64,000 nt of DNA from a virus. The stretch lies in the IMG/VR virus record IMGVR_UViG_3300025289_000001; one strand, given 5' to 3'. Under the pieces are notes generated by a model, which was not told the DNA's origin, ran no database searches, and saw only the letters and a list, made by a program, of their open reading frames with translations. Position 1 is the stretch's first letter; each line of letters begins with the position of its first letter. This document shows, piece by piece, positions 45,413 through 63,717 of the stretch. The translations under genes were made by a program, and so were the position numbers.

Positions 45413-46607
45413 TTTTCTTTTTCAATTTTATTAAGCAATCTTCCATATCTGTACAATATATAAGATTTAGATTATTTATATTTTCTATCATTCTTTCAAA
45501 CCATATTTCTTCTTGGGTTTCTTTAGTTCGTATAATAAATATATTTCCTATTTCACCATTATCACGAAGTCTTCCAATTCGTTGAATTAAGTCTTTATCT
45601 GTACTATAATATGACATTATAATACAATTATCTAAATCTTTTAAATTAGCACCTTGTTTTAATTTCTTAAAACTAGCGATTACTCTGATTTTATTATCAT
45701 CAAAAGCATGTCTTATTTGTAAATTTTTAGCTTCAGAATTTAAAGAACTAACTACATTAGGTGTTATTTGTAATAATATATCTAAACTATTACCAAATAT
45801 AATAGTTTTAGTTTGTAATTGACCTAATAATTTCTTAACTATAGTAATTTTAGATACTAAATTATACAAAATATTAGTTCGCTTACTAGCAGTAATTCTA
45901 ATCTTTAAATCTTTTAATACCTTATCTATAATAAACCACGACTTTTTGTGTTCTTTATCCCAATAACTATAAGCAGCTTTCTCTGTTTGAAAGAATCTCT
46001 TCTTATTATTTCCAGCATTTATAGTAGGATTTATATCATCTAATGAATGATCTATTACATATACATCTAGTTTTCTTGATGTTCCTTCAGTTTGACCTCT
46101 ATTCATTGAATATTTATAACATATAGGAGCAACTTGGTTCAATAAATCACCCTTAGTTATAATTTTCCCATCTACTATATATTCAGTTTTCTTAATAATA
46201 GTAGCTGATAGTCCTATAATAGCATCATAAGTATTATTAAAGTAAAATTTAGAATAAGCCAAACTTAAACTATCATGAATTTCATCCGCTATCACCAAAC
46301 CAAAATGTCTATTTTTCCATTTATATACAGTCTGATAACAATAAAACTGTAGATTATAATCATTTAAAACATCTCGATTAAAAATTTTATTATATTTTTT
46401 AATATCTTCTATTAAATCTACCTTTCTACTTATAGTTTCAGCTAAAAATAGATGAATATCATCATTTCTAGGCATTGTATATAATGCATGCAAACTAATA
46501 AAGGTCTTGCCTAGCCCAGTAATTATTTCACAGGTTCCAGTTTTACCTCTTTCTAACCACTTATTTAATGCTTCTTGTTGTATTTTATCTTTTAAAAGAT
46601 TATTCAT
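45402..46607 (-). CDS. superfamily-2 DEAD/DEAH-type (ResIII-like) helicase
   Basis: 401 aa. Walker A is TGLGKTF, motif II is IADEIHD, motif III is LSAT, and motif VI is QRIGRLRD. Confidence 0.75.
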   Translation of the reverse strand: MNNLLKDKIQQEALNKWLERGKTGTCEIITGLGKTFISLHALYTMPRNDDIHLFLAETISRKVDLIEDIKKYNKIFNRDVLNDYNLQFYCYQTVYKWKNRHFGLVIADEIHDSLSLAYSKFYFNNTYDAIIGLSATIIKKTEYIVDGKIITKGDLLNQVAPICYKYSMNRGQTEGTSRKLDVYVIDHSLDDINPTINAGNNKKRFFQTEKAAYSYWDKEHKKSWFIIDKVLKDLKIRITASKRTNILYNLVSKITIVKKLLGQLQTKTIIFGNSLDILLQITPNVVSSLNSEAKNLQIRHAFDDNKIRVIASFKKLKQGANLKDLDNCIIMSYYSTDKDLIQRIGRLRDNGEIGNIFIIRTKETQEEIWFERMIENINNLNLIYCTDMEDCLIKLKKKNEI

Positions 46608-46957
46608 TATTTAGTTACTTCTCTAGTATCACCACTACCATGTAAAGTATTTGTAGTTCGACGTTGAATTAATTTATTATAATTGACTGTCATAATATCT
46701 TCAAGTGAAATACCTATTTCATTACTAATAGCTGTAATATACCATAATACATCGCCTAATTCTTTATTTAATAAAAGTTTTATATCTTCTGATATGATTT
46801 TTTTATTTAAAAAATCATTATCTCTATATAATTTTTTTACTTTTTCAGCAACTTCTCCTGCTTCTCCTGTTAAACCTAATGCACAATATGCTAATCCAAC
46901 TTCTTTTGGATATATAGCTGTTAATTCAATTATTTTTTGGTATTCTTTTATATCCAT
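46607..46957 (-). CDS. MazG-like nucleoside triphosphate pyrophosphohydrolase
   Basis: 116 aa. GLTGEAGEVAEKVKK ... ELGDVLWY is the canonical all-alpha NTP-PPase pattern (E-x-x-E ... E-x-x-D). Confidence 0.8.
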   Translation of the reverse strand: MDIKEYQKIIELTAIYPKEVGLAYCALGLTGEAGEVAEKVKKLYRDNDFLNKKIISEDIKLLLNKELGDVLWYITAISNEIGISLEDIMTVNYNKLIQRRTTNTLHGSGDTREVTK

Positions 46958-51820: not shown

Positions 51821-52321
51821 TTAAAAAATTTTAATATATACTCCTGGATTATTTGAATCCACAGAATACCATTTGGTTATTCTTATATTTTGTAAAGTGG
51901 GTAGTTCTCCATCTATAGACATAGGTATTGGAAATACATATTTGATATTATCATCTTCTATAAAATCATGAGCTGTAAATAAATCTTGTAATATTTCTAC
52001 ACTATTACTAAAATCAAATAAAGCTTTACTTTTTCTTACTTGATGATATCCTATAAATAAAGGATTATCTTTACCAACTTTCATTGCTTCAAATTGAGCC
52101 CTTATTGCTTCAATTTGATTTGGACGTGTTTTATCAACATATCCTTTTACTAGTTTATGTTTAGAACTAAAAGATTGTATACCCAAACTCCTAAGATATT
52201 TATTTACCGTAGGAGAACTGAATATACCTCTTTGTGTTTTAACTTTACTATTTTTTAAACTGGGTACTGACCCTGGTATCCATATCATTTGATTACCATG
52301 GGATACAACAGTCTGGTCCAT
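51821..52321 (-). CDS. RusA-like Holliday-junction resolvase (tentative)
   Basis: IPGSVPSLKNSK and DFSNSVEILQDLFTAHDFIEDDNIKYV resemble RusA PPSNN and DLDN...D...DD motifs. An alternative start at 52288 (MIWIPG) would remove the 29-nt overlap with the UDG gene. Confidence 0.4.
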   Translation of the reverse strand: MDQTVVSHGNQMIWIPGSVPSLKNSKVKTQRGIFSSPTVNKYLRSLGIQSFSSKHKLVKGYVDKTRPNQIEAIRAQFEAMKVGKDNPLFIGYHQVRKSKALFDFSNSVEILQDLFTAHDFIEDDNIKYVFPIPMSIDGELPTLQNIRITKWYSVDSNNPGVYIKIF

Positions 52322-53000
52322 TTATTTTTGCTATTAATTTGTTAATTTCTACAAAATGATTACAATTCCATTTTCTGTCTTCTTCAACAGCTTTTGTAGG
52401 ACTTTCACATTCAAAAATAAAATGCTTGTCTTCATTAATGTATTGTTTAAAATACTGAGCTTCTTCACCCCAAAGACAAAAAATAATATTAGTTTTATTT
52501 TTACTAATAGTTTTAATTACTTCACGAGTAAAATTTCTCCAATATTCTAAGTGACTTCCTGGTTTACCATCTTGAACAGTTAATGCAGAATTTAATAATA
52601 AAACACCTGCATATTCCCAAAATTCTAAAGTAGGTTCCATATTTATTCTAAGACCATTATTTATTTGTTCCTCTATTGTTTCAAGTATTTTAACTAATTC
52701 AGGTGAAAAGTTTTGTCCAACTTTATCATCATTTCCAAAAGCTAAACCTGTGGCATGTGATGTAAAATATGGCTCTTTACCTAATATTACTACTTGTAAA
52801 TCAGTAATAGGACAATAAAAAAATGAATCAAAGACTCTTATCTTATTAGGTGATATTCTTTGTACTTTATAACTTTCATTAATAAAATACATTAGATTAG
52901 TCATATATTCAGAAATGAGTAAGGGGTTTAACGCCCTTACCCATGCTTTTCCTAATAATGCTTCATAATCAATATCTAATTTATATTTTGGTGATATCAT
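52293..53000 (-). CDS. family-1 uracil-DNA glycosylase homologue with a non-canonical active site
   Basis: 235 aa. VVILGKEPYF aligns with E. coli VVILGQDPYH, GVLLLNSALTV with GVLLLNTVLTV, CESPT with HPSPL, and NCNHFV with GCNHFV. Confidence 0.7.
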   Translation of the reverse strand: MISPKYKLDIDYEALLGKAWVRALNPLLISEYMTNLMYFINESYKVQRISPNKIRVFDSFFYCPITDLQVVILGKEPYFTSHATGLAFGNDDKVGQNFSPELVKILETIEEQINNGLRINMEPTLEFWEYAGVLLLNSALTVQDGKPGSHLEYWRNFTREVIKTISKNKTNIIFCLWGEEAQYFKQYINEDKHFIFECESPTKAVEEDRKWNCNHFVEINKLIAKINGPDCCIPW

Positions 53001-53011
53001 TAGTTATATAA

Positions 53012-54787
53012 TTAAATTTGTAAATTCTCATCATCTTCATCATATGGATCATTATCAAAATTCATATCTAGAGGAGCTTCTACTTGATTATTTTCAATAT
53101 TTATATTTATATTACGATCTCCTCTATTTATATCCCATTCATGCATTCTAGCAACAGCATTTATTTCTTCTTGTCGTAGTAAACCATCTTCAAGAGCTTC
53201 AAATACTCCTCCTCTTCTTCCTCTTGCTCTAAATGGTTCATCTAGTACATTTATATAAGTTAATGGTGATTTAGACTCCTTAGGTGTGTTTTTTAACCAG
53301 AAAGTATCTCTTATATTAAAATCATCTTCATTAGCTTTAATATTACCTTTTTGAGCTTGATGGTACATAAAATTACGTCTAGTACTGATATAATACATTA
53401 AATTATCTAATAATCTATTAGAATTTTTAATATCTTTATTATTCATAATTGTACTATATAAAATATCAGAAAGAGATAAATTTGATACAGAACTAAAATC
53501 ATTTAAGATTTTAGCAGTATTATCTTTAACAAAATTAACAATTGAACCACATATAACTAAATAGTTTAATACTTTATCAATATCATAAGTAGGTGTATGT
53601 AGTCTAAACTCAATTGTTTGTTTGTTACCAAATAATAATGGAATTAAATTCACCCAATGATAACGAGTTCTAATATTCCACTTAGCTTCCCCTCTAGGAT
53701 CAGAAGGATGATATTTAACATTAGATAATTTACCACTAACATCACTATAATCTTGTCCCATTGAAAGATATTTATATAAAACATTAAAGTTTTCTTTAAT
53801 ATTACTATCATTTATCTTTCTATCTAATAAATACATACTTTCATTCAATGTGAATGGTTTAGTATAGTGTTTTTTCTTCACACCATAATTGTATTTTTTA
53901 TAGACTGGAAATAATTCAAATAATGAATTTTCTAATAAACATAACATTTTAAATAATGCTAACATAAACTCTTCAGTTCTTGGAACATTACCAATATGTA
54001 AATGTAATGAACAATCATTATCATAAATTGTTCGTTTAGATAATTGTTTAACTGAATCAATAATAGTTTGCATTCCTTTACTATTTTGTAGAGGAATAGT
54101 TACATATTCTAAACCTTGAATGCTACCATCTCTTAATGGTATTAATCCTAATTTATTACATAATCTTTCAGGAACATAACCATTAATTGTTTCAAATTCT
54201 AAACCAAAAGTTAACCCTTTTAATACCTCTCCATATTGTTTTATAGAGTCAATATATTTAGGTTCATATAATTCATTATATATACTTGATTTATTTGAGA
54301 TTAAATTATTTGAATCATATAATAAATTATTCTTAAATCCAGGTGGAATATTCCCAATTTTAGAAAATTTAGAACTTCTTATAGATTGTCTATGATAATA
54401 AATATTATCAGATAGATTTTCTTTAAAATTTGTATTTTCTAATATAGATTCATCCATACAAGGATATCTTTCATTTTTATAGCTAATTATAATAGAATCA
54501 TTATATTCAGATATAGAAAAATAACCTAAAGTAGGTGTATCTTTATCAGAAAAACCTATTATACCATATAATAAAGAAGTGTTATTTTTCACTACATATG
54601 TTTTTAAACTGTGATTATATACTATATATCCTGTATCTTGTTTATAATATTTTTCATTAATAAAATAACAATGACCAGAGTTTTCTATTGTAGGATCACC
54701 AATAATATAGAATTCACCTCTAATGTTTCTACATTTACTTTTTTCTACTACTGTACCATCAATGGTAAGTACTGTATCTTTATTCAT
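53012..54787 (-). CDS. Amidoligase_2-like (glutamine-synthetase-fold) amide ligase with extra N- and C-terminal regions
   Basis: 591 aa. LTFGLEFETINGY...PLRDGSIQGLEYVTIPL...CSLHLHIG follows the GxExE...D-x-S...E-x-v-S/T-P...H-x-H pattern of the putative amidoligase family. Confidence 0.6.
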   Translation of the reverse strand: MNKDTVLTIDGTVVEKSKCRNIRGEFYIIGDPTIENSGHCYFINEKYYKQDTGYIVYNHSLKTYVVKNNTSLLYGIIGFSDKDTPTLGYFSISEYNDSIIISYKNERYPCMDESILENTNFKENLSDNIYYHRQSIRSSKFSKIGNIPPGFKNNLLYDSNNLISNKSSIYNELYEPKYIDSIKQYGEVLKGLTFGLEFETINGYVPERLCNKLGLIPLRDGSIQGLEYVTIPLQNSKGMQTIIDSVKQLSKRTIYDNDCSLHLHIGNVPRTEEFMLALFKMLCLLENSLFELFPVYKKYNYGVKKKHYTKPFTLNESMYLLDRKINDSNIKENFNVLYKYLSMGQDYSDVSGKLSNVKYHPSDPRGEAKWNIRTRYHWVNLIPLLFGNKQTIEFRLHTPTYDIDKVLNYLVICGSIVNFVKDNTAKILNDFSSVSNLSLSDILYSTIMNNKDIKNSNRLLDNLMYYISTRRNFMYHQAQKGNIKANEDDFNIRDTFWLKNTPKESKSPLTYINVLDEPFRARGRRGGVFEALEDGLLRQEEINAVARMHEWDINRGDRNININIENNQVEAPLDMNFDNDPYDEDDENLQI

Positions 54788-54799
54788 TTTTATTATATA

Positions 54800-56695
54800 T
54801 TATTCATTTGTGTCAAATACTACTAATCTGGTTGTATCTACTAAAAAAGTATTTAATATATCAACTGCTTGGTCAGCTTTTTTATTATTTTTATACATTT
54901 CTAATCGTTTAATGTATAAAGGAAATTTAGCTAAACCTTCTTTAAATATATCATCTAAATCTTTTTCTAATAAATCATTATTATTCTCATCAGTTAATAA
55001 CATAATTGATCTATTATTATTCTTCTCTGCATCTACTACATTTTTTTCATTCTGAATAATAAGTTGACCTATATGTTTTAGACTATCTGATACTTTTACT
55101 TTTTTATCAATTCTTACACATTCACCATTTTTAAATGTATAAGTGAATTCTGAACCTAATGGACATACTACATCTGTAACTAATTTACCATTTACATATG
55201 ATTTTGGTGCTACAAATTTACTAGTTACATTTATATTAAATACAGGATGAGCAGAACATATTGACATTGATAAATAATCAAATTTAGCATCATAACTTGC
55301 CATATCTAAACAAGCTAAATAATCTATTCTTGTTTTAATCCTAATTCCATCATAAAAATAGTATATACGAGGTACTGAAATTTCATTACCTTTAGTACTA
55401 ATAAATGGTGTAATAACACGATTCATTTCTTCATTACTTAGTCCTTTTAAATCACGAAGAAATGATTTATCTAAAAATGGTTTATTAACTAAATTAAAAA
55501 ATGATTGTTCAGATTCTTTAATATTATCTCCTAAGAAATAGAATCCAAAATCAGTAATCCAAGTATAACATCCAGTAATTAAATGTCCATTTCTCCAATA
55601 TCTCATTTTATTAAAATAAATAGGACTATTATATTGACGATTTTTAGGTATATATATTTCATTTCCTAAATTAATACCATTTGGGTTTAATCTTAATATG
55701 GTCTGACGAGGATTATCTTCTTCTGTTTCTATGTTTTCTTTTTTTCTTTTTTCCTCTGCCAAAGCCTTTTTTTCATCTTCAACAATTTGTAAAGCAGTTT
55801 TCTTTTTATCTATAGAATGACCAAAAGCATTATCATAATAATCTTCATCATCCCATGCATCTCTATCATTTTTTAAATAAGGATGTCTACCAGTATATGC
55901 AGGAGCTATATAAGATTGATAATTATTACTTCTATCTATTATAGTTTTTTCTGCTTTTTCTACTTCACCATCAGTTATTTTATAAACTGTATTATGGTCA
56001 AAAGAATGAATGGTATCCACTGTTCCACCAATAGCATATAAACTACTTTCCATTGATGAAATATATACACTATTTTTACTTTCTTGATAATAAAATAAAG
56101 GACGTTCTTCTACTGCTAAATGACTGTTATTAGCTTTATTAGATTCACCATGATAACAATATATCACATTAGGCTCATTTAAATTTGAAAATACTAATGC
56201 TGCAGCACCATTATATTGAGATAGAACATCATAATTTTTCTTTGTAAAAACAATTTCTAATAATATTTCACTATCTATTTTAGTTCTAGTAATAGTAGAA
56301 TTATGTTTATGAGTAATATGTGTTAATGATATATCATTTAATTTTGCAATTTCATGATGATTTATAAGGGTACCATTATGTACCCCTACAAATTCATAAT
56401 GATCATTTACTTCACCAAATCCAAATGGATGAGCATTTTCTACTGTATGTGCACCATATGTACTTGCCCGTGTATGTCCAATTACTGTTGGAAATAATTT
56501 AGGTGCATCATAGTTTACATTACTAAGAAAATCTTTATATACTTTATTTTTATCAATACCAATACTAATCTCTCCATCTTTAGTTATCCCACAAGAATGT
56601 GTTCCCCTTGCTTCATTAAAAATTCCAAGGATATCAAGTTTAGTTTTATTAAATTTTTTAGGGTCTTTTCCTGACCACGCAAAGATTCCACACAT
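54800..56695 (-). CDS. class II (Ntn) glutamine amidotransferase fused to an unknown ~380-aa C-terminal domain
   Basis: 631 aa. The motifs are MCGIFAW (Cys2 nucleophile), HTRASTYG, NAHPF, VHNGTLINHHEI and DSEILLE. No PP-loop (SGGxDS) or sugar-isomerase motif lies downstream. Confidence 0.75.
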   Translation of the reverse strand: MCGIFAWSGKDPKKFNKTKLDILGIFNEARGTHSCGITKDGEISIGIDKNKVYKDFLSNVNYDAPKLFPTVIGHTRASTYGAHTVENAHPFGFGEVNDHYEFVGVHNGTLINHHEIAKLNDISLTHITHKHNSTITRTKIDSEILLEIVFTKKNYDVLSQYNGAAALVFSNLNEPNVIYCYHGESNKANNSHLAVEERPLFYYQESKNSVYISSMESSLYAIGGTVDTIHSFDHNTVYKITDGEVEKAEKTIIDRSNNYQSYIAPAYTGRHPYLKNDRDAWDDEDYYDNAFGHSIDKKKTALQIVEDEKKALAEEKRKKENIETEEDNPRQTILRLNPNGINLGNEIYIPKNRQYNSPIYFNKMRYWRNGHLITGCYTWITDFGFYFLGDNIKESEQSFFNLVNKPFLDKSFLRDLKGLSNEEMNRVITPFISTKGNEISVPRIYYFYDGIRIKTRIDYLACLDMASYDAKFDYLSMSICSAHPVFNINVTSKFVAPKSYVNGKLVTDVVCPLGSEFTYTFKNGECVRIDKKVKVSDSLKHIGQLIIQNEKNVVDAEKNNNRSIMLLTDENNNDLLEKDLDDIFKEGLAKFPLYIKRLEMYKNNKKADQAVDILNTFLVDTTRLVVFDTNE

Positions 56696-56703
56696 CTATT
56701 TTT

Positions 56704-57507
56704 TTATTTTGTAATTAGTTTTAATTCTTTTAATTTTTCTATTTCATTTAATAATAAACGTGCATTTGGTTTATCATTTTGATTAATTGTTCTTTGAATT
56801 TCTGAATCATATTTTTCAATAATTTCATCAATAATTCCATTATTAATTAATGCAATAGCTTCTAATGATTTATTATAAGCCCATGTAATTGATTCATCTG
56901 TTTTAATCCAAAAATTAGATAAAGTTCTATATTCTACACCAAAGTTTTTAAATCTAAAACAACCAGCTTTACCATACATTTCTTTTCTTCTATCATCTGG
57001 ATCTAATAAAATAGATTCTAAACCTAAAACAGCATCCATTGCATATATAATTTTTTCACTAAGTTCTTGTGTTGGGTTATCATAACCTATATGAATATGT
57101 CCACCACAAGTTCTTAATTTACCACCACCTTTTGGAGGTGTATTCATTGCTTTCAAATAAACATTATAATCAGGTTCACAACCAAATAATTTAGCTTGAG
57201 GTGTATTTAAATATTTTGGATCAATTTCTGCAGATGCAGAATAGTTTAATTTACATCCACGTAAATCAGCTAATATATTTAAATAATCTTTTACGAAATT
57301 AATATTATTAACAAATTCCTCTGCTGAGTCAGATGCAGGGATATTGAATTCAACCATAATATTATCTTCTTGTATAGCGTGACCTTTATCACTAATAGGT
57401 GTTGGTGCATATTTAGTACCTCCTATTAATCCTTCAGCTGAAACAATTTCTCCATTTCTTTCTAAAAATAATTCAGGGTCTGTTCCAATAAGAATATTCT
57501 TTATCAT
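56704..57507 (-). CDS. phiEco32-type COOH-NH2 ligase (GS-like amidoligase, type 2)
   Basis: 267 aa with the motifs IGTDPELFL, QEDNIMVEFNIPA, GGHIHIGY and GVEYRTLSN. Confidence 0.6.
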   Translation of the reverse strand: MIKNILIGTDPELFLERNGEIVSAEGLIGGTKYAPTPISDKGHAIQEDNIMVEFNIPASDSAEEFVNNINFVKDYLNILADLRGCKLNYSASAEIDPKYLNTPQAKLFGCEPDYNVYLKAMNTPPKGGGKLRTCGGHIHIGYDNPTQELSEKIIYAMDAVLGLESILLDPDDRRKEMYGKAGCFRFKNFGVEYRTLSNFWIKTDESITWAYNKSLEAIALINNGIIDEIIEKYDSEIQRTINQNDKPNARLLLNEIEKLKELKLITK

Positions 57508-57508
57508 T

Positions 57509-58177
57509 TTATTGTGTAATTAAATATTTATTAATTAATTGTAAAATATAGTTTTTAGTTTTTTCTGGACATGTACTAAATTCAGGATGACCTTGTATAC
57601 ATAATGATTTAGTTTTATTATAATACACAATCTCTGGTTCTAAAAATGCATCAGGTAAAGTAATTTCAGTATTTTCACCATTTAAATATGTATTACTTTT
57701 AAAAAATTCAGACCAAGCAATGAATTCAAATTCTTGTTCTTTCATATTATAAGGATACATCATTTGATGATGAGTTGAAGTAATTTCATAAATTGAACCT
57801 GGTTGTGTTTCAATTGTATGATTTCCACTATGACCTGTAACATGTTGAACTAATTTACCTCCACTCATTACAGTAAGAAATTGTGCACCTCTACATATTC
57901 CTAATTTAGGAACACGATAGTAATTATTCCACATATTTGATTCTTCTTCATCCCTTTTAGTATCAATACCTGTATATTGTCCTATTTTTTCATTATAATA
58001 TGCAGGATTTACATCTGCACCTCCTGTAAAAAGTAAAAAATCAATTTGATGTGCACTATAATCTTTTAATTTATTAAATGGTACAAATGTAGCATTAAAT
58101 TTTGACATTAAAAAGTTAGCATAATCATTATTAAAATGGTTATCAACTCCAATAATTAATTCTTTTTTATTCTGCAT
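57509..58177 (-). CDS. class I glutamine amidotransferase-like / peptidase C26 gamma-glutamyl hydrolase
   Basis: 222 aa. The nucleophile elbow is LGICRGAQFL, and His/Glu are in CIQGHPEF. Confidence 0.7.
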   Translation of the reverse strand: MQNKKELIIGVDNHFNNDYANFLMSKFNATFVPFNKLKDYSAHQIDFLLFTGGADVNPAYYNEKIGQYTGIDTKRDEEESNMWNNYYRVPKLGICRGAQFLTVMSGGKLVQHVTGHSGNHTIETQPGSIYEITSTHHQMMYPYNMKEQEFEFIAWSEFFKSNTYLNGENTEITLPDAFLEPEIVYYNKTKSLCIQGHPEFSTCPEKTKNYILQLINKYLITQ

Positions 58178-59042
58178 TATATTTTTGTTTTAATAATTTT
58201 GTTAGTTCTTCTTTATATTTAATAAGAGTAATATCCCCAAAAGATGGAGCTGAATTAATTTCTACAATAATAAAATCAGGTTCTTCTCTTTCTCTACCTC
58301 TACTATCTTTAGCACCTTGAATTCTTAAATCTATTGCACCTATATCTAATCCTACAGCATTTAAAGCTTTAACTGATTCAGCTACAATATTATCCCAATT
58401 CTTAGGTCTATCAAATAAATCATTTTCTTCTAAGATCCACACACAATGTGCATCATTACGATACCATTTATCTTCATCTGCAGTATCTTCTTTTAACATT
58501 TTTCTACAAGAATAGAAACAACCATTTTGAGATATATGTAATCTATATTCTCTAGTATAGTTATAATATTTTTCAAATATATAATGGGTTAAGTCTTTAC
58601 CTCTCATCCATTCTTGTAATTCTTCAATAGAATCATGTTTTTTATTACCTTGATTTCTACTCCCAAAATGAGATTTAGAGATAATAGGATAAGGTAAATC
58701 TTCTAATGAATATACTGGAAAATGATCTTCATCATTAATTCTTTGAATAAATTGAACAAATTCACCATTTCTAGCTATTTGAGCAACAAACCAATCTGCT
58801 GTTTTTACATTATTTTCAGTAAAACAATTTTTCATCTTATATTTACTAGATGAATTTTGAACACCTTCTATCGTATTAATTTCTATTCTATTACCACCAT
58901 TTGTTACTGTATCACGTAAATCTGTAGTAGAACCAAATCTAATTACAGATCTAAAAGGTAATAATTCAAATGTACCTCGTTGTCTTAAAGGTGAATGAGA
59001 TGGATGTCTACTTCTAATTTTTGGTCTAAAATTGTTTCTCAT
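58167..59042 (-). CDS. ATP-grasp ligase (RimK-related type)
   Basis: 291 aa. IISKSHFGSRNQG...REYRLHIS...GLDIGAIDLRI...FIIVEINSAPSFG follows the ATP-grasp pattern. Confidence 0.6.
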   Translation of the reverse strand: MRNNFRPKIRSRHPSHSPLRQRGTFELLPFRSVIRFGSTTDLRDTVTNGGNRIEINTIEGVQNSSSKYKMKNCFTENNVKTADWFVAQIARNGEFVQFIQRINDEDHFPVYSLEDLPYPIISKSHFGSRNQGNKKHDSIEELQEWMRGKDLTHYIFEKYYNYTREYRLHISQNGCFYSCRKMLKEDTADEDKWYRNDAHCVWILEENDLFDRPKNWDNIVAESVKALNAVGLDIGAIDLRIQGAKDSRGREREEPDFIIVEINSAPSFGDITLIKYKEELTKLLKQKYNAE

Positions 59043-59422
59043 TTATTGTAACTTTTTTCTTTTAAATAATCTTCCCAATCACCATCTATTACTTGATTAT
59101 ATCCACCTACTTTATGAGGAAATATATAAATATAAGCTTCTCCATAAGGTGTATCAATAGTATCTCGTAAATAATGACTTCTTCCTGTATTTGATGGATT
59201 ATATCCTTCTAATCTATCAACATCTACAAGCATTTTTTGATTTATTCTATATACTTCTAAAACAATAGAAGTATTTCCATTTTTTATAAGTCCAGGATAT
59301 GAACCTAAGTCATACATACTATATTCAGGTAAACTATCAAATTTTCCTAAATATGTAGCATTTTCAATTATTAAATGATTATGTAATCCTTTTCTTAGAC
59401 TACCATATACTGCTATTAACAT
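59039..59422 (-). CDS. gamma-glutamyl cyclotransferase (AIG2/GGACT-like)
   Basis: The listed start at 59449 is a TTG. The ATG at 59422 gives MLIAVYGSLRKGLHNH..., the canonical family N-terminus. YPGL and DRLEGY are also present. Confidence 0.7.
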   Translation of the reverse strand: MLIAVYGSLRKGLHNHLIIENATYLGKFDSLPEYSMYDLGSYPGLIKNGNTSIVLEVYRINQKMLVDVDRLEGYNPSNTGRSHYLRDTIDTPYGEAYIYIFPHKVGGYNQVIDGDWEDYLKEKSYNK

Positions 59423-59432
59423 ATTTTTATTT

Positions 59433-60461
59433 TTAAAATGGTACTGCAATCATATTTTTTAATATATTTACAGCTTTGTTTTTTCCTAAATTTTTAATTA
59501 AATCACTGAAATCTTTAGATTGATATTTTTCATCTATTTCAACTTGTAATAAATCAAATGTTTCTGATAAAGATTTACCAAATTGTCGTCCCCAATTAGT
59601 TTCTTTATCAAAATCATTATCATATAGAAGGAATATATTTTCAAATCTATCTTTTAATTCTTGGATAATATATTCTTTAGGATGTACTGATTCTGATTGT
59701 AATGCTACTGCAGAAATATTAGTAGTGTTATTTACAATAGCCATTACATCTTTTAAAGATTTAGTAATTATTAATGTTTTTCCTTTTTCTGGTAATTGTT
59801 CCCACCCTTGCCATACAGAATCATTATGGTTATTTAACCATTTAAAATCTGTATTATAAGGTTGATATATTTTATATGTTTCTTTTCCATCTTTATGTTC
59901 AATAAATGCATAAGCATATTTATGTACATAAATAGGATTACCATTAATAAAAATATATTCAATTGGTTCAACTTTATATTTTAATAATGTAGCTTCATCT
60001 ATACCATATTGTAACCAAAAAGCATAATCTTGAGCTACCCAATTTCTTCGTTTTTTTCCTAATTCTAAAGGTTTATTATTATTTAAAACATCTTCCTTAT
60101 TTCTAAATAAATTAGGATTATAAACACCTTCACTTTTTTCTATAGATCTCACTATAAAATGTTCATCAATATTAAAATCTATTGCGATTTTACTTAATGC
60201 TTCAAAATAATTTAGTTTAAATTTTAACTGTACAAATTTAACAAAATCTCCAGCTCCAATCAACCAATCTTTAAAACAAATTTCACCACTTTCACCAATA
60301 AAATATCCAAATGAAGGATTGTTATCTTCACGTAATGGAGAATTTGTAATTACTTTTAATTCTACATCTTGTCCTGTATAAAATCTATATACTGATATAT
60401 CATCAATATAATTTAGTAATCCAGCTTTTGTTACTAATTTTTTATTTAAATCTATTGTCAT
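59433..60461 (-). CDS. DnaG/TOPRIM-type primase with a degenerate (Cys-poor) zinc-binding region
   Basis: 342 aa. SPLREDNNPSFGYF...GEICFKDW aligns with CPFHxExTPSF...CFGC, but only one Cys is retained. The TOPRIM-like part is LIITKSLKDVMA ... LLYDNDFD. Confidence 0.55.
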   Translation of the reverse strand: MTIDLNKKLVTKAGLLNYIDDISVYRFYTGQDVELKVITNSPLREDNNPSFGYFIGESGEICFKDWLIGAGDFVKFVQLKFKLNYFEALSKIAIDFNIDEHFIVRSIEKSEGVYNPNLFRNKEDVLNNNKPLELGKKRRNWVAQDYAFWLQYGIDEATLLKYKVEPIEYIFINGNPIYVHKYAYAFIEHKDGKETYKIYQPYNTDFKWLNNHNDSVWQGWEQLPEKGKTLIITKSLKDVMAIVNNTTNISAVALQSESVHPKEYIIQELKDRFENIFLLYDNDFDKETNWGRQFGKSLSETFDLLQVEIDEKYQSKDFSDLIKNLGKNKAVNILKNMIAVPF

Positions 60462-60505: not shown

Positions 60506-61075
60506 TTATACCCAAGATTCAGACTTGGTACCACCATCTAATCCATCAGAAGGAACATCTTGTTCTACTCTCTCTAATAAATCACCTGGTTTTACACGAA
60601 GTCTTGTTACTGGTGTTGCAGCATCTTCAATGAAATCAAAATATCTTAATCCCATAAATTTACTTGCATAACCTGCTGTACCATATGTTACAAATACATT
60701 GTATTTTTTAGCTCCAGCATTATCGCGTACTAATTTAAATAACGTATCAAATGCTTCTGTTGCACTTTCTACTTTTGGAAATTCATAATTTGCACCCATT
60801 ACTGCTTTAGCAAGATGTACAATTCTACTCACTTCCCTTACTGCTTTTTTATCATTTTCTTCAGCTGATTTTTGAGGATCATTTTTAGGATAATAAAATC
60901 CTTGATTGATTTTACCACCTGTATTATCTTCTATAACCAACTTATAATTTGGATATGTATCTGGTTCACCTGCTCCTCTTTTTTCAACAGAAATTGTTAC
61001 ATCCTTCACTAATCCTCCTTGACCATTATTAAATATAACAGTACCACCAAATTTCTTTTCGTTTAAATCAAACAT
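60506..61075 (-). CDS. possible single-stranded DNA-binding protein (low confidence)
   Basis: 189 aa. It sits next to the Sak4/AAA_24-like ATPase, is followed by its own terminator (suggesting high expression), and has an acidic C-terminal tail. No diagnostic motif. Confidence 0.3.
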   Translation of the reverse strand: MFDLNEKKFGGTVIFNNGQGGLVKDVTISVEKRGAGEPDTYPNYKLVIEDNTGGKINQGFYYPKNDPQKSAEENDKKAVREVSRIVHLAKAVMGANYEFPKVESATEAFDTLFKLVRDNAGAKKYNVFVTYGTAGYASKFMGLRYFDFIEDAATPVTRLRVKPGDLLERVEQDVPSDGLDGGTKSESWV

Positions 61076-61893: not shown

Positions 61894-62352
61894 TTAATTA
61901 TTTATAATTTCATCAAATGTTACATCTAAATTATGAAAGTTTTGAGTATCCATTGTTAAATATTTACATTCTGCTTTAAATGTTTGCCAATATGCACTAC
62001 CTCTAAAATTATATTTACGAATATCAGGACAATAATTGTACATAAATCCAGCACCATTTGTTCGCCCTGCTTCATATTTTATAATTTCAAATAATATATC
62101 TTTAATTCTAGATTTAGGAAAATAAAATTTAGATAATTTAATAATATCATCTAATGAACGATATCTATCATAATCACATTGTAATCCACCTCTAACAAAA
62201 TATGTTTCTATTGGATCTTGTTTTAAATCTATTGTATAATATAATATATCTTCAATAGATTTTATTATAACATCATCTTTAAATCTAATTTTTCTTATTT
62301 TATTATAATAGATTTCTAAATCTTTTATTGTTGTCACATCTTTTTTAGTCAT
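61894..62352 (-). CDS. hypothetical protein
   Basis: The listed first codon at 62355 is GTG, and the next codon (62352) is ATG. 152 aa, no motif. Confidence 0.55.
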   Translation of the reverse strand: MTKKDVTTIKDLEIYYNKIRKIRFKDDVIIKSIEDILYYTIDLKQDPIETYFVRGGLQCDYDRYRSLDDIIKLSKFYFPKSRIKDILFEIIKYEAGRTNGAGFMYNYCPDIRKYNFRGSAYWQTFKAECKYLTMDTQNFHNLDVTFDEIINN

Positions 62353-62758
62353 CACTTTTATTTATTATATCTAAGCATTTTACTTTTCCATTAAAATAAA
62401 TTGTATCAGCTATAATTTGGATAAATTTAATATGTTTATTATGTTTTAAACCATATTTAATTTCAGCTTTTACACCTGTAGAGTTTTTTAAATACTCTAT
62501 ACCTTCTTTAGGTATTAATACCCAAATTTCATCACACCAATCAACAAATTGATAATCAATATGTTGCCAATAATCCCATGTATGAGGTACTGTATAACCT
62601 TCTAATAATGTTAATGGGTGTGAATGAGTAATAGGACTAAATACATTTAATCCTTTATTTAGAATTAATACAGATGCTTTATTAGCTTGTTCAAAACTAC
62701 TTTCAACCATACCTGTATATGGAATTGCTAAATATATTTTCTTTAATTGCTTATTCAT
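62345..62758 (-). CDS. DUF1937-like protein (nucleoside 2-deoxyribosyltransferase-like fold)
   Basis: 137 aa. IYLAIPYTG...NVFSPITHSHPL...WDYW...CDEIWVL...STGVKAEI matches my recollection of the DUF1937 consensus. Confidence 0.6.
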   Translation of the reverse strand: MNKQLKKIYLAIPYTGMVESSFEQANKASVLILNKGLNVFSPITHSHPLTLLEGYTVPHTWDYWQHIDYQFVDWCDEIWVLIPKEGIEYLKNSTGVKAEIKYGLKHNKHIKFIQIIADTIYFNGKVKCLDIINKSDD

Positions 62759-63387: not shown

Positions 63388-63717
63388 TTACAAATCTTTT
63401 AAATTTTTATCTATAAATCTATCATCTAAATCTTTTCTAAACATAGTCATATAAGATAAAAACATAGCGTTACACAATATATGTCCTACATGTGATAATT
63501 TACTTTCTTTATCATTATCTTCTCCTTCTAAAAAAGAATTCATATGACGTTGTAGACTTTCACAAGTTTCTGTATATTTTAATCCTTTTTTCCAATTATG
63601 ATCATCATATTTTTCAGCACCAAACATTAGAACCTGTACTAAAGGTTCTAATGCTCTCCAACTGACTAATGACCATTTCAATTTATTATTATTAAATCGA
63701 CTACCTAATCCTTCCAT
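63388..63717 (-). CDS. dATP/dGTP diphosphohydrolase-like (DUF5664, MazG-related) protein
   Basis: 109 aa. KLKWSLVSWRALEPLVQVLMFGAEKYDDHNWKKGL...SHVGHILCNAMFL matches the family pattern (K-x-R/K-W-x-L...FGAxKY...NW.KG...H...CN). Confidence 0.6.
   Translation of the reverse strand: MEGLGSRFNNNKLKWSLVSWRALEPLVQVLMFGAEKYDDHNWKKGLKYTETCESLQRHMNSFLEGEDNDKESKLSHVGHILCNAMFLSYMTMFRKDLDDRFIDKNLKDL

Follow-up and report, generated by a model that had tools for sequence, protein, structure and literature searches.

P0001, a protein of a marine crAss-like phage, is a family-1 uracil-DNA glycosylase (UDG, UNG) homologue in which both catalytic residues are replaced and the uracil pocket is kept. From its sequence, its structure model and the analogy with other viral proteins, we give about even weight to the reading that P0001 is a uracil- or DNA-recognising UNG whose chemistry is strongly weakened and which is kept for a binding or replisome role. 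The gene is located at 52293..53000 on the minus strand of the window, which is the whole stretch of viral DNA that was analysed (64,000 nucleotides, IMG/VR record IMGVR_UViG_3300025289_000001). Since the two defining catalytic motifs of the family fail, the appropriate name for P0001 is Glu-type family-1 UDG homologue, not uracil-DNA glycosylase. The Glu-type group is wide and undescribed, and its members are probably concerned with binding rather than with efficient cutting of uracil in DNA.

The gene and its altered active site

The assignment of this 235-residue protein draws on the open reading frame, Pfam, the UNG structures of the PDB and an AF2 model. P0001 matches the Pfam UDG model PF03167 with 46.1 bits (cut-off 24.3, E 6.8e-12). 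Solved family-1 UNGs of B. subtilis, E. coli, human, herpesviruses and others align over nearly the full length with E values from 1e-25 to 1e-18, the best matches (1e-25) being the B. subtilis, E. coli and human chains. The original prediction had described the family-1 alignment as unambiguous, and these scores bear it out. The AF2 model was built on 104 relatives and reaches a mean pLDDT of 95.8; it provides the structural view of the pocket that had been proposed at the outset and shows the fold intact over its full length. Compared with human UNG–DNA complexes, it gives a Z score of 30.3 and an rmsd of 2.0 Å over 218 of 223 residues. Family-1 membership is thereby found in sequence as well as in fold homology over the full domain.

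The same protein, identical residue for residue, occurs on 15 metagenome contigs, one of which measures 98.5 kb. Among 12 relatives at 40-60% identity, 33 alignment columns are invariant, and P0001 is, on this sequence pattern, under purifying selection. The reading frame, the homology, the fold model and the identical copies on 15 contigs together mean that the gene is real, intact and circulating.

P0001 resembles the family-1 enzymes E. coli Ung, human UNG2 and B. subtilis Ung in its whole fold, with 30-32% identity, and shares with them the Tyr/Phe/Asn pocket and the motifs GSH and, at the C terminus, CNHF...W. In contrast, it carries Glu for Asp64, Lys for Gln63, Ser for His187, Ala for Leu191, Lys for the second Pro of HPSPL and a Gly-Glu in place of the Gly-Ser loop. 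These pairings come from HMMER alignments to the E. coli Ung H187Q/H187D chains and to B. subtilis Ung.

Motif 1 (canonical GQDPYH) is read from the sequence and the alignments as G74-K-E76-P-Y78-F79 (52764..52781, minus strand). Gln63-Asp64 of E. coli correspond to Lys75-Glu76, and the site of the water-activating Asp holds Glu76 (codon GAG, 52773-52775, minus strand), so that where family 1 has a GQDPY motif with its Asp, P0001 has GKEPYF. This exchange of Asp for Glu is as the original prediction had described it. Motif 2 with the Leu-loop (canonical xxHPSPL) is C198-E-S200-P-T-K-A204 (52389..52409, minus strand), placed by the HMMER alignment and by ECEHPS in relatives. Here the catalytic His187 is lost and Ser200 stands in its place (codon AGT, 52401-52403, minus strand); Ser189 corresponds to Thr202, Pro190 to Lys203, and the intercalating Leu191, also lost, to Ala204. 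Instead of HPSPLS with its His and Leu, the protein thus reads SPTKAV.

The profile alignment places neither a canonical Asp nor a canonical His at the catalytic positions of P0001. The earlier claim that both catalytic residues are substituted therefore stands, as Asp to Glu76 and His to Ser200, and two of its details have to be corrected. The catalytic His had been paired with Cys in CESPT, and Cys198 lies two residues off the aligned position. Six close relatives read ECEHPS and so carry Cys and His together, for which reason Cys198 cannot be the equivalent of the catalytic His. The intercalating Leu had likewise been matched with Thr; Thr202 is the counterpart of Ser189, and the Leu aligns with Ala204. 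Two substitutions separate the Ser200 codon AGT from the His codons CAT/CAC, with Asn (AAT) as a one-step intermediate, and Asn is found at the catalytic His site of the relatives P0008, P0009 and L003.

The uracil-specific pocket is preserved in all three of its residues. Tyr78 corresponds to Tyr66 of E. coli, the residue which excludes 5-substituted bases. Phe88, equivalent to Phe77 and stacking on uracil, is recognised from GLAFGN against the UNG motif GLAFS (codon 52737..52739, minus strand). Asn137, equivalent to Asn123 and responsible for recognition of uracil N3/O4, lies in GVLLLNSALT, which matches the LLLN motif of UNGs (codon 52590..52592, minus strand). Retention of the recognition Asn (LLLNSALTV) and of the pocket Tyr had been noted from the start and is confirmed. 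The DNA-contact Gly-Ser loop is Gly-Glu (WGEEAQ). Many phage relatives with the canonical Asp are also devoid of the Ser of this loop and of the intercalating Leu; these two losses are therefore not special to the Glu type.

In family 1, the role of Asp64 is to position and activate the attacking water molecule, and that of His187 to stabilise the uracilate leaving group via O2 (PMC5387724). The counterpart of the P0001 exchange at the His site has been made in the family-4 enzyme Tth UDGa: H155S lowers k2 from 0.23 to 7.2e-5 per s and leaves Km unchanged at 0.97 vs 0.76 µM (PMC5387724 Table 1). As k2 falls and Km does not change, this mutant has lost chemistry and kept binding. For the Asp site, our search for literature on family-1 UNG D145E / D64E mutants yielded nothing usable.

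The picture that we propose is as follows. P0001 is a complete and well-folded family-1 UNG, with the uracil pocket of Tyr78, Phe88 and Asn137 intact, and its chemistry would be strongly weakened by the exchanges at Glu76 (water activation), at Ser200 (leaving group) and at Ala204 (DNA intercalation). It would flip and recognise a uracil in DNA, or the abasic site that excision leaves, and its excision would be very slow at best, in the manner of MUG/TDG. The role under selection in the replication module would be recognition or binding, as a sensor, a shield or a replisome accessory, and not high-turnover repair.

Active-site decay among the relatives

An exhaustive profile search retrieved 13,773 family-1 relatives. 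We compared 181 distinct sequences, comprising the best 150 representatives of these 13,773 together with the first-search proteins and sequences from 31 viral loci. Asp occupies the water-activating position in 101 of the 181, and this Asp-type group is nearly uniform in the rest of the active site (His kept in 97, Tyr in 97, Phe in 99 and Asn in 100). The Glu-type group accounts for 54 of these nearest cluster representatives and keeps His in 26, Tyr in 39, Phe in 36 and Asn in 38; its members come mostly from phage contigs and also occur as a second domain behind a canonical bacterial UNG. Another residue stands at the Asp site in the remaining 26, 12 of which keep His. Glu-type sequences without His carry Ser (10), Asp (4), Tyr (4), Asn (4), Ala (2), Glu (2), Leu (1) or Gly (1) at that site, and those without Asn carry Asp (8), Tyr (3), His (3), Ser (1) or Pro (1). 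Over the 181 sequences, the raw association of Glu with His loss has a Fisher p of 5e-12, a value which ignores shared ancestry.

Parsimony mapping on a FastTree topology, midpoint rooted and inferred with the trait columns left out, gives a comparison of rates. His was lost twice on the Asp background (74.9 branch units), eight times on the non-Asp background (19.3 branch units) and nine times on the branches where Asp itself changes. The corresponding losses are 0, 5 and 1 for Asn and 1, 9 and 3 for Tyr. By parsimony on this tree, the rate of loss of His, Tyr and Asn is more than 10 times higher where the Asp has disappeared. A conservative independent-pairs sign test on supported branches comprises 10 pairs only; it shows no significance (median p 0.6) and is underpowered. 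These sequence comparisons make a good, though not airtight, case for relaxed selection on the remaining active-site residues after loss of the Asp.

Gly74, Glu76, Pro77 and Tyr78 of motif 1 are highly conserved within the clade of P0001; in the nearest clade Glu reaches at least 90% conservation, with no variation at Pro77 and Tyr78. The nearest lineage, which bears the gene cassette described below, has Glu fixed and H, S, N or D at the His site; the closest relatives of all (P0002-P0007 and L002) keep His alongside Glu. Conservation of the three substitutions within a clade had been the check proposed initially, and it holds for the Glu and fails for the residue at the His site. In non-catalytic UDG-fold replisome components (poxvirus D4-like, N4-like PolA UDG domain) the catalytic residues are either dispensable or unconserved, and the lack of conservation is found here too, both Asp and His being replaced and the His site variable. 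Because the pocket and motif 1 are conserved and the His site wanders, selection would appear to favour acceptance of a flipped uracil or holding of an abasic site over fast cleavage.

Gene neighbourhood and replication module

The UDG gene lies within a long minus-strand block of replication and nucleotide-metabolism genes. The order is AAA_24 ATPase, a 189-aa reading frame without a family match (60506-61075), DNA primase (59433..60461; phrog_12622, E 1e-66), a six-gene gamma-glutamyl/amidoligase cassette (53012..59449), UDG and a RusA-like resolvase (51821-52321; phrog_1682), all on the minus strand. The resolvase overlaps the 3' end of the UDG gene by 29 nt and is followed downstream by orf86, a PD-(D/E)XK nuclease, orf184 and a class-II RNR. 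The stretch from UDG to RNR is common to Bacteroides phage crAss001 (gp74-gp69) and Cellulophaga phage phi14:2. The cassette, upstream of UDG and identified by Pfam and PHROG matches, encodes GGACT, an ATP-grasp-like protein, a C26 GATase, a COOH-NH2 ligase, a class-II GATase and Amidoligase_2. Around the UDG gene, promoter-like sites are no more frequent than in shuffled sequences, and a scan of the coding strand found no terminator-like site. Three further minus-strand genes of the same block encode a MazG pyrophosphohydrolase (46607-46957), a DUF1937/DUF4406 protein resembling nucleoside deoxyribosyltransferases (62345-62758) and a protein with a dATP/dGTP diphosphohydrolase N-terminal domain (dGTP_diPhyd_N, PF18909, E 4e-31; 63388-63717); together they hint at editing of the dNTP pool.

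The amidoligase gene ends at 53012, in agreement with the 11-nt gap reported earlier. The cassette stands beside UDG in the window, in phi14:2 and at loci L001, L002, L003 and L008/L009, and it is missing within 10 kb of UDG in 26-27 of the 31 related viral loci. At loci without it, the gene close upstream of UDG is usually the primase, which ends 0.6-0.7 kb upstream of UDG at L007, L011-L021, L024, L026 and L030; in Flavobacterium phage FpV4 a toprim primase gene overlaps the UDG start. All cassette-linked UDGs are of the Glu type, and Glu-type UDGs also occur free of it (L004, L022/23, L025/27 and L031). From this gene order, the cassette is best read as a lineage-specific insertion between primase and UDG in the Akihdevirus-like lineage, which makes its adjacency to UDG weak evidence of a shared function. 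The link to an amidoligase operon, implied in the original prediction, is weakened accordingly, as UDG follows the primase without any cassette in most related phages.

A partnership of UDG with this cassette, for instance in a DNA-base or protein modification pathway, is thus very improbable. It would accord with the close spacing of UDG and the amidoligase gene, which lie on one strand and are not separated by a terminator-like site on that strand, with the recurrence of the cassette-UDG order in phi14:2, L002, L003 and L008/9, and with the Glu type of every cassette-linked UDG; it is opposed by the many loci, Glu-type ones included, at which the cassette is absent and the primase is the neighbour, as expected of an insertion into a primase-UDG pair.

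A single UDG match was found in phi14:2 and in each of four related IMG/VR genomes estimated to be 92-100% complete. With one match per genome searched, the Glu-type UDG is not a spare beside a canonical copy. A prediction of a primase-UDG complex scored 0.00 (mark 0.32), which counts neither for nor against an interaction. We also considered whether UDG type is tied to the polymerase family and dropped this for lack of a correlation; PolA is found beside an Asp-type UDG (G003) and beside Glu-type UDGs (G005, G006 and G008). The Pfam PolA and PolB models detected no DNA polymerase in the Akihdevirus-like genomes (phi14:2, G001 and G002). The phi14:2 record KC821624.1 (L039:9636-12081) contains two short reading frames annotated 'putative DNA polymerase', gp029 and gp031, with a small gene between them. 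The polymerase of this lineage seems to be very divergent or split.

Known systems and competing explanations

The closest cultured relative of P0001 is gp053 of phi14:2 (AGO48931.1; 40.6% identity), from a phage classified in Crassvirales, Steigviridae, Asinivirinae, Akihdevirus, with crAss001 in the same subfamily. The two proteins share the order cassette-UDG-resolvase and the Glu-type motif GKEPY, and differ at the His site, which is Asp in gp053 (EDPIQ) and Ser in P0001. The annotation of gp053 is 'uracil-DNA glycosylase', and the substitutions are not mentioned. crAss001 gp74 and the FpV4 UDG occupy the same slot of the replication module as P0001: crAss001 has UDG, resolvase, PD-(D/E)XK nuclease and RNR in order, and FpV4 has a toprim primase directly upstream. 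Unlike in P0001, the catalytic Asp and His are canonical in these two proteins (GQDPYP ... HPAYY / HPAAE). The literature that we searched mentions crAss-like UDGs in general terms only, as a gene of the replication module, and we found in it no paper on family-1 UDGs of crAss-like or other phages with altered catalytic residues.

Family 4 already offers a known case of a catalytically degraded UDG fold in phage replication. In N4-like phages, PolA has an N-terminal UDG domain whose catalytic residues are not conserved and which is proposed to act in processivity or as a structural element (PMC10201439). P0001 is similar in that the UDG fold is kept in a phage replication setting and the catalytic residues are not; it differs in being of family 1, stand-alone and structurally complete, whereas the N4-like domain is of family 4, fused to the polymerase and devoid of some structural elements. 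The mpox protein E4 is a subunit within the DNA polymerase holoenzyme (PMC13697223). Poxvirus D4/E4 is thus a family-1-like viral UDG serving as a structural part of the replisome, yet it keeps the catalytic Asp and His, is enzymatically active and has A20/A22 as its partner, whereas P0001 is placed in the module by gene position only. Catalysis by poxvirus D4 is reportedly dispensable for replication, a finding attributed to De Silva and Moss in 2003. Family-2 MUG/TDG enzymes of the UDG superfamily work without the Asp/His pair; they are very slow and bind their product tightly. They serve as a model for the possible residual capacity of a weakened family-1 enzyme, although they belong to another family with the motifs GINPG and NPSGLS, and P0001 is clearly family 1 by sequence.

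We infer a loss of catalytic rate, retained binding and a binding or replisome role for P0001 from sequence and from these analogies; what the data show directly are the homology, the fold, the residues with their conservation, the single UDG per related complete genome, the fixed position of the gene downstream of the primase and the accelerated decay of the active site in relatives devoid of the Asp. Both catalytic residues changed around a preserved pocket, and the higher rate at which relatives without the Asp lose His, Asn and Tyr, fit such a role, and the N4-like PolA domain and mpox E4 offer precedents in viral replication. Against it, Glu is chemically able to activate water, the conserved Glu, Pro77 and Tyr78 argue that the active site is still used, and the UDG-superfamily families 2 and 5 function without an Asp/His pair. 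Furthermore, P0002-P0007 and L002 combine Glu with His, so that Glu-type proteins may be working enzymes and some activity may be kept in P0001. These points lead to the main competitor, a slow but working uracil-DNA glycosylase performing ordinary repair of an AT-rich phage genome, in which Glu76 activates the water and the leaving group is assisted by Ser200 or by backbone amides. We regard it as possible though doubtful. Motif 1 with its Glu, Pro and Tyr is conserved and the pocket is intact; nearly half of the Glu-type relatives (26 of 54), the nearest ones included, keep His; the protein is the only UDG in related genomes; and its genomic slot is that of the canonical UDGs of crAss001 and FpV4. 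On the other hand, replacement of His in P0001 and in many Glu-type relatives (S, N, D, Y, A or E), and the decay of Asn and Tyr in the same class, are unexpected under selection for uracil excision, the base-flipping Leu is Ala, and in a related family the His-to-Ser exchange costs about 3,000-fold in k2 (PMC5387724).

A change of target is less easily reconciled with P0001 itself. A glycosylase or reader directed at another base, such as a modified pyrimidine, on host DNA or modified phage DNA would account for Asn to Asp in 8 of the 54 Glu-type proteins (e.g. LIDAA in L008/L009) and for Tyr to Ala, Ser or Gly in others, and the phage carries the nucleotide-pool genes MazG, dGTP_diPhyd_N and DUF1937. 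However, canonical Tyr78, Phe88 and Asn137 imply a uracil-shaped pocket, no base-modification enzyme or pathway was identified within the window, and the varied pocket states across the class look more like relaxation than like one new specificity; we consider this explanation improbable. Least probable of all is that the gene is in decay and has lost all function. Loss of the catalytic residues is what decay would produce, but the reading frame is intact, the identical protein recurs on its 15 contigs, 33 columns stay invariant across relatives at 40-60% identity and the fold is predicted with very high confidence. Among the options originally listed, a binding-only protein and altered chemistry have gained from the intact pocket, the changed catalytic pair and the decay of His and pocket residues in the Glu type; a decoy function, aimed at UDG inhibitors or host factors, has nothing in its support.

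A broader reading, which we advance tentatively and hold to be rather unlikely, is that Glu-type family-1 UDGs form a distinct, widespread and undescribed class of uracil or AP-site readers or of glycosylases with retuned specificity. If true, the Glu type would act alongside ordinary uracil repair in phage replication, or replace it, and the natural Asn to Asp and Tyr to small-residue variants would mirror engineered cytosine- and thymine-DNA glycosylases. Changes of the same kinds at Asn and Tyr reportedly give human UNG cytosine- or thymine-DNA glycosylase activity, a result attributed to Kavli and colleagues in 1996.

In crAss-like phages as in others, UDG genes are routinely annotated as encoding enzymes of uracil repair, and a sizeable fraction of the UDGs so annotated, the phi14:2 protein included, is without the catalytic pair. 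The drift of the active site after replacement of the Asp points to a second function of the UNG fold in phage replication, other than repair; it would be a counterpart, in a stand-alone family-1 protein, to the poxvirus and N4-like cases. This is directly testable, since phi14:2 and its host can be grown.

Several individual relatives deserve mention. In the Glu type, Asn is replaced by Asp in L008/L009:9983-10726 (GVFLIDAA), P0023, P0039, P0045, P0066, P0085, P0091 and P0101, and the pocket Tyr by Ala, Ser or Gly in L025, L027, P0077 and P0140. P0095 (L040:23-1339) is a tandem fusion of a canonical UNG (GQDPYHG...HPSPLSA) and a Glu-type domain (GQEPPCQ...HPAVAP), and it is followed at L040 by a further stand-alone UDG gene. 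P0076 (L041:6001-8139) joins EndoIII (HhH-GPD), a canonical UNG and a Glu-type UNG (GAEPVSA), in that order; its context is a bacterial chromosome with MlaD/MlaE neighbours (assembly GCA_964630925.1). The domain order of these fusions suggests that the Glu-type domain adds something which the canonical UNG domain lacks. Lastly, P0168 (803 aa) consists of three degenerate tandem UDG-like domains with Ser at the Asp position in each (GESP, GTSP and GESP), and only the last of the three has a recognisable HP motif.
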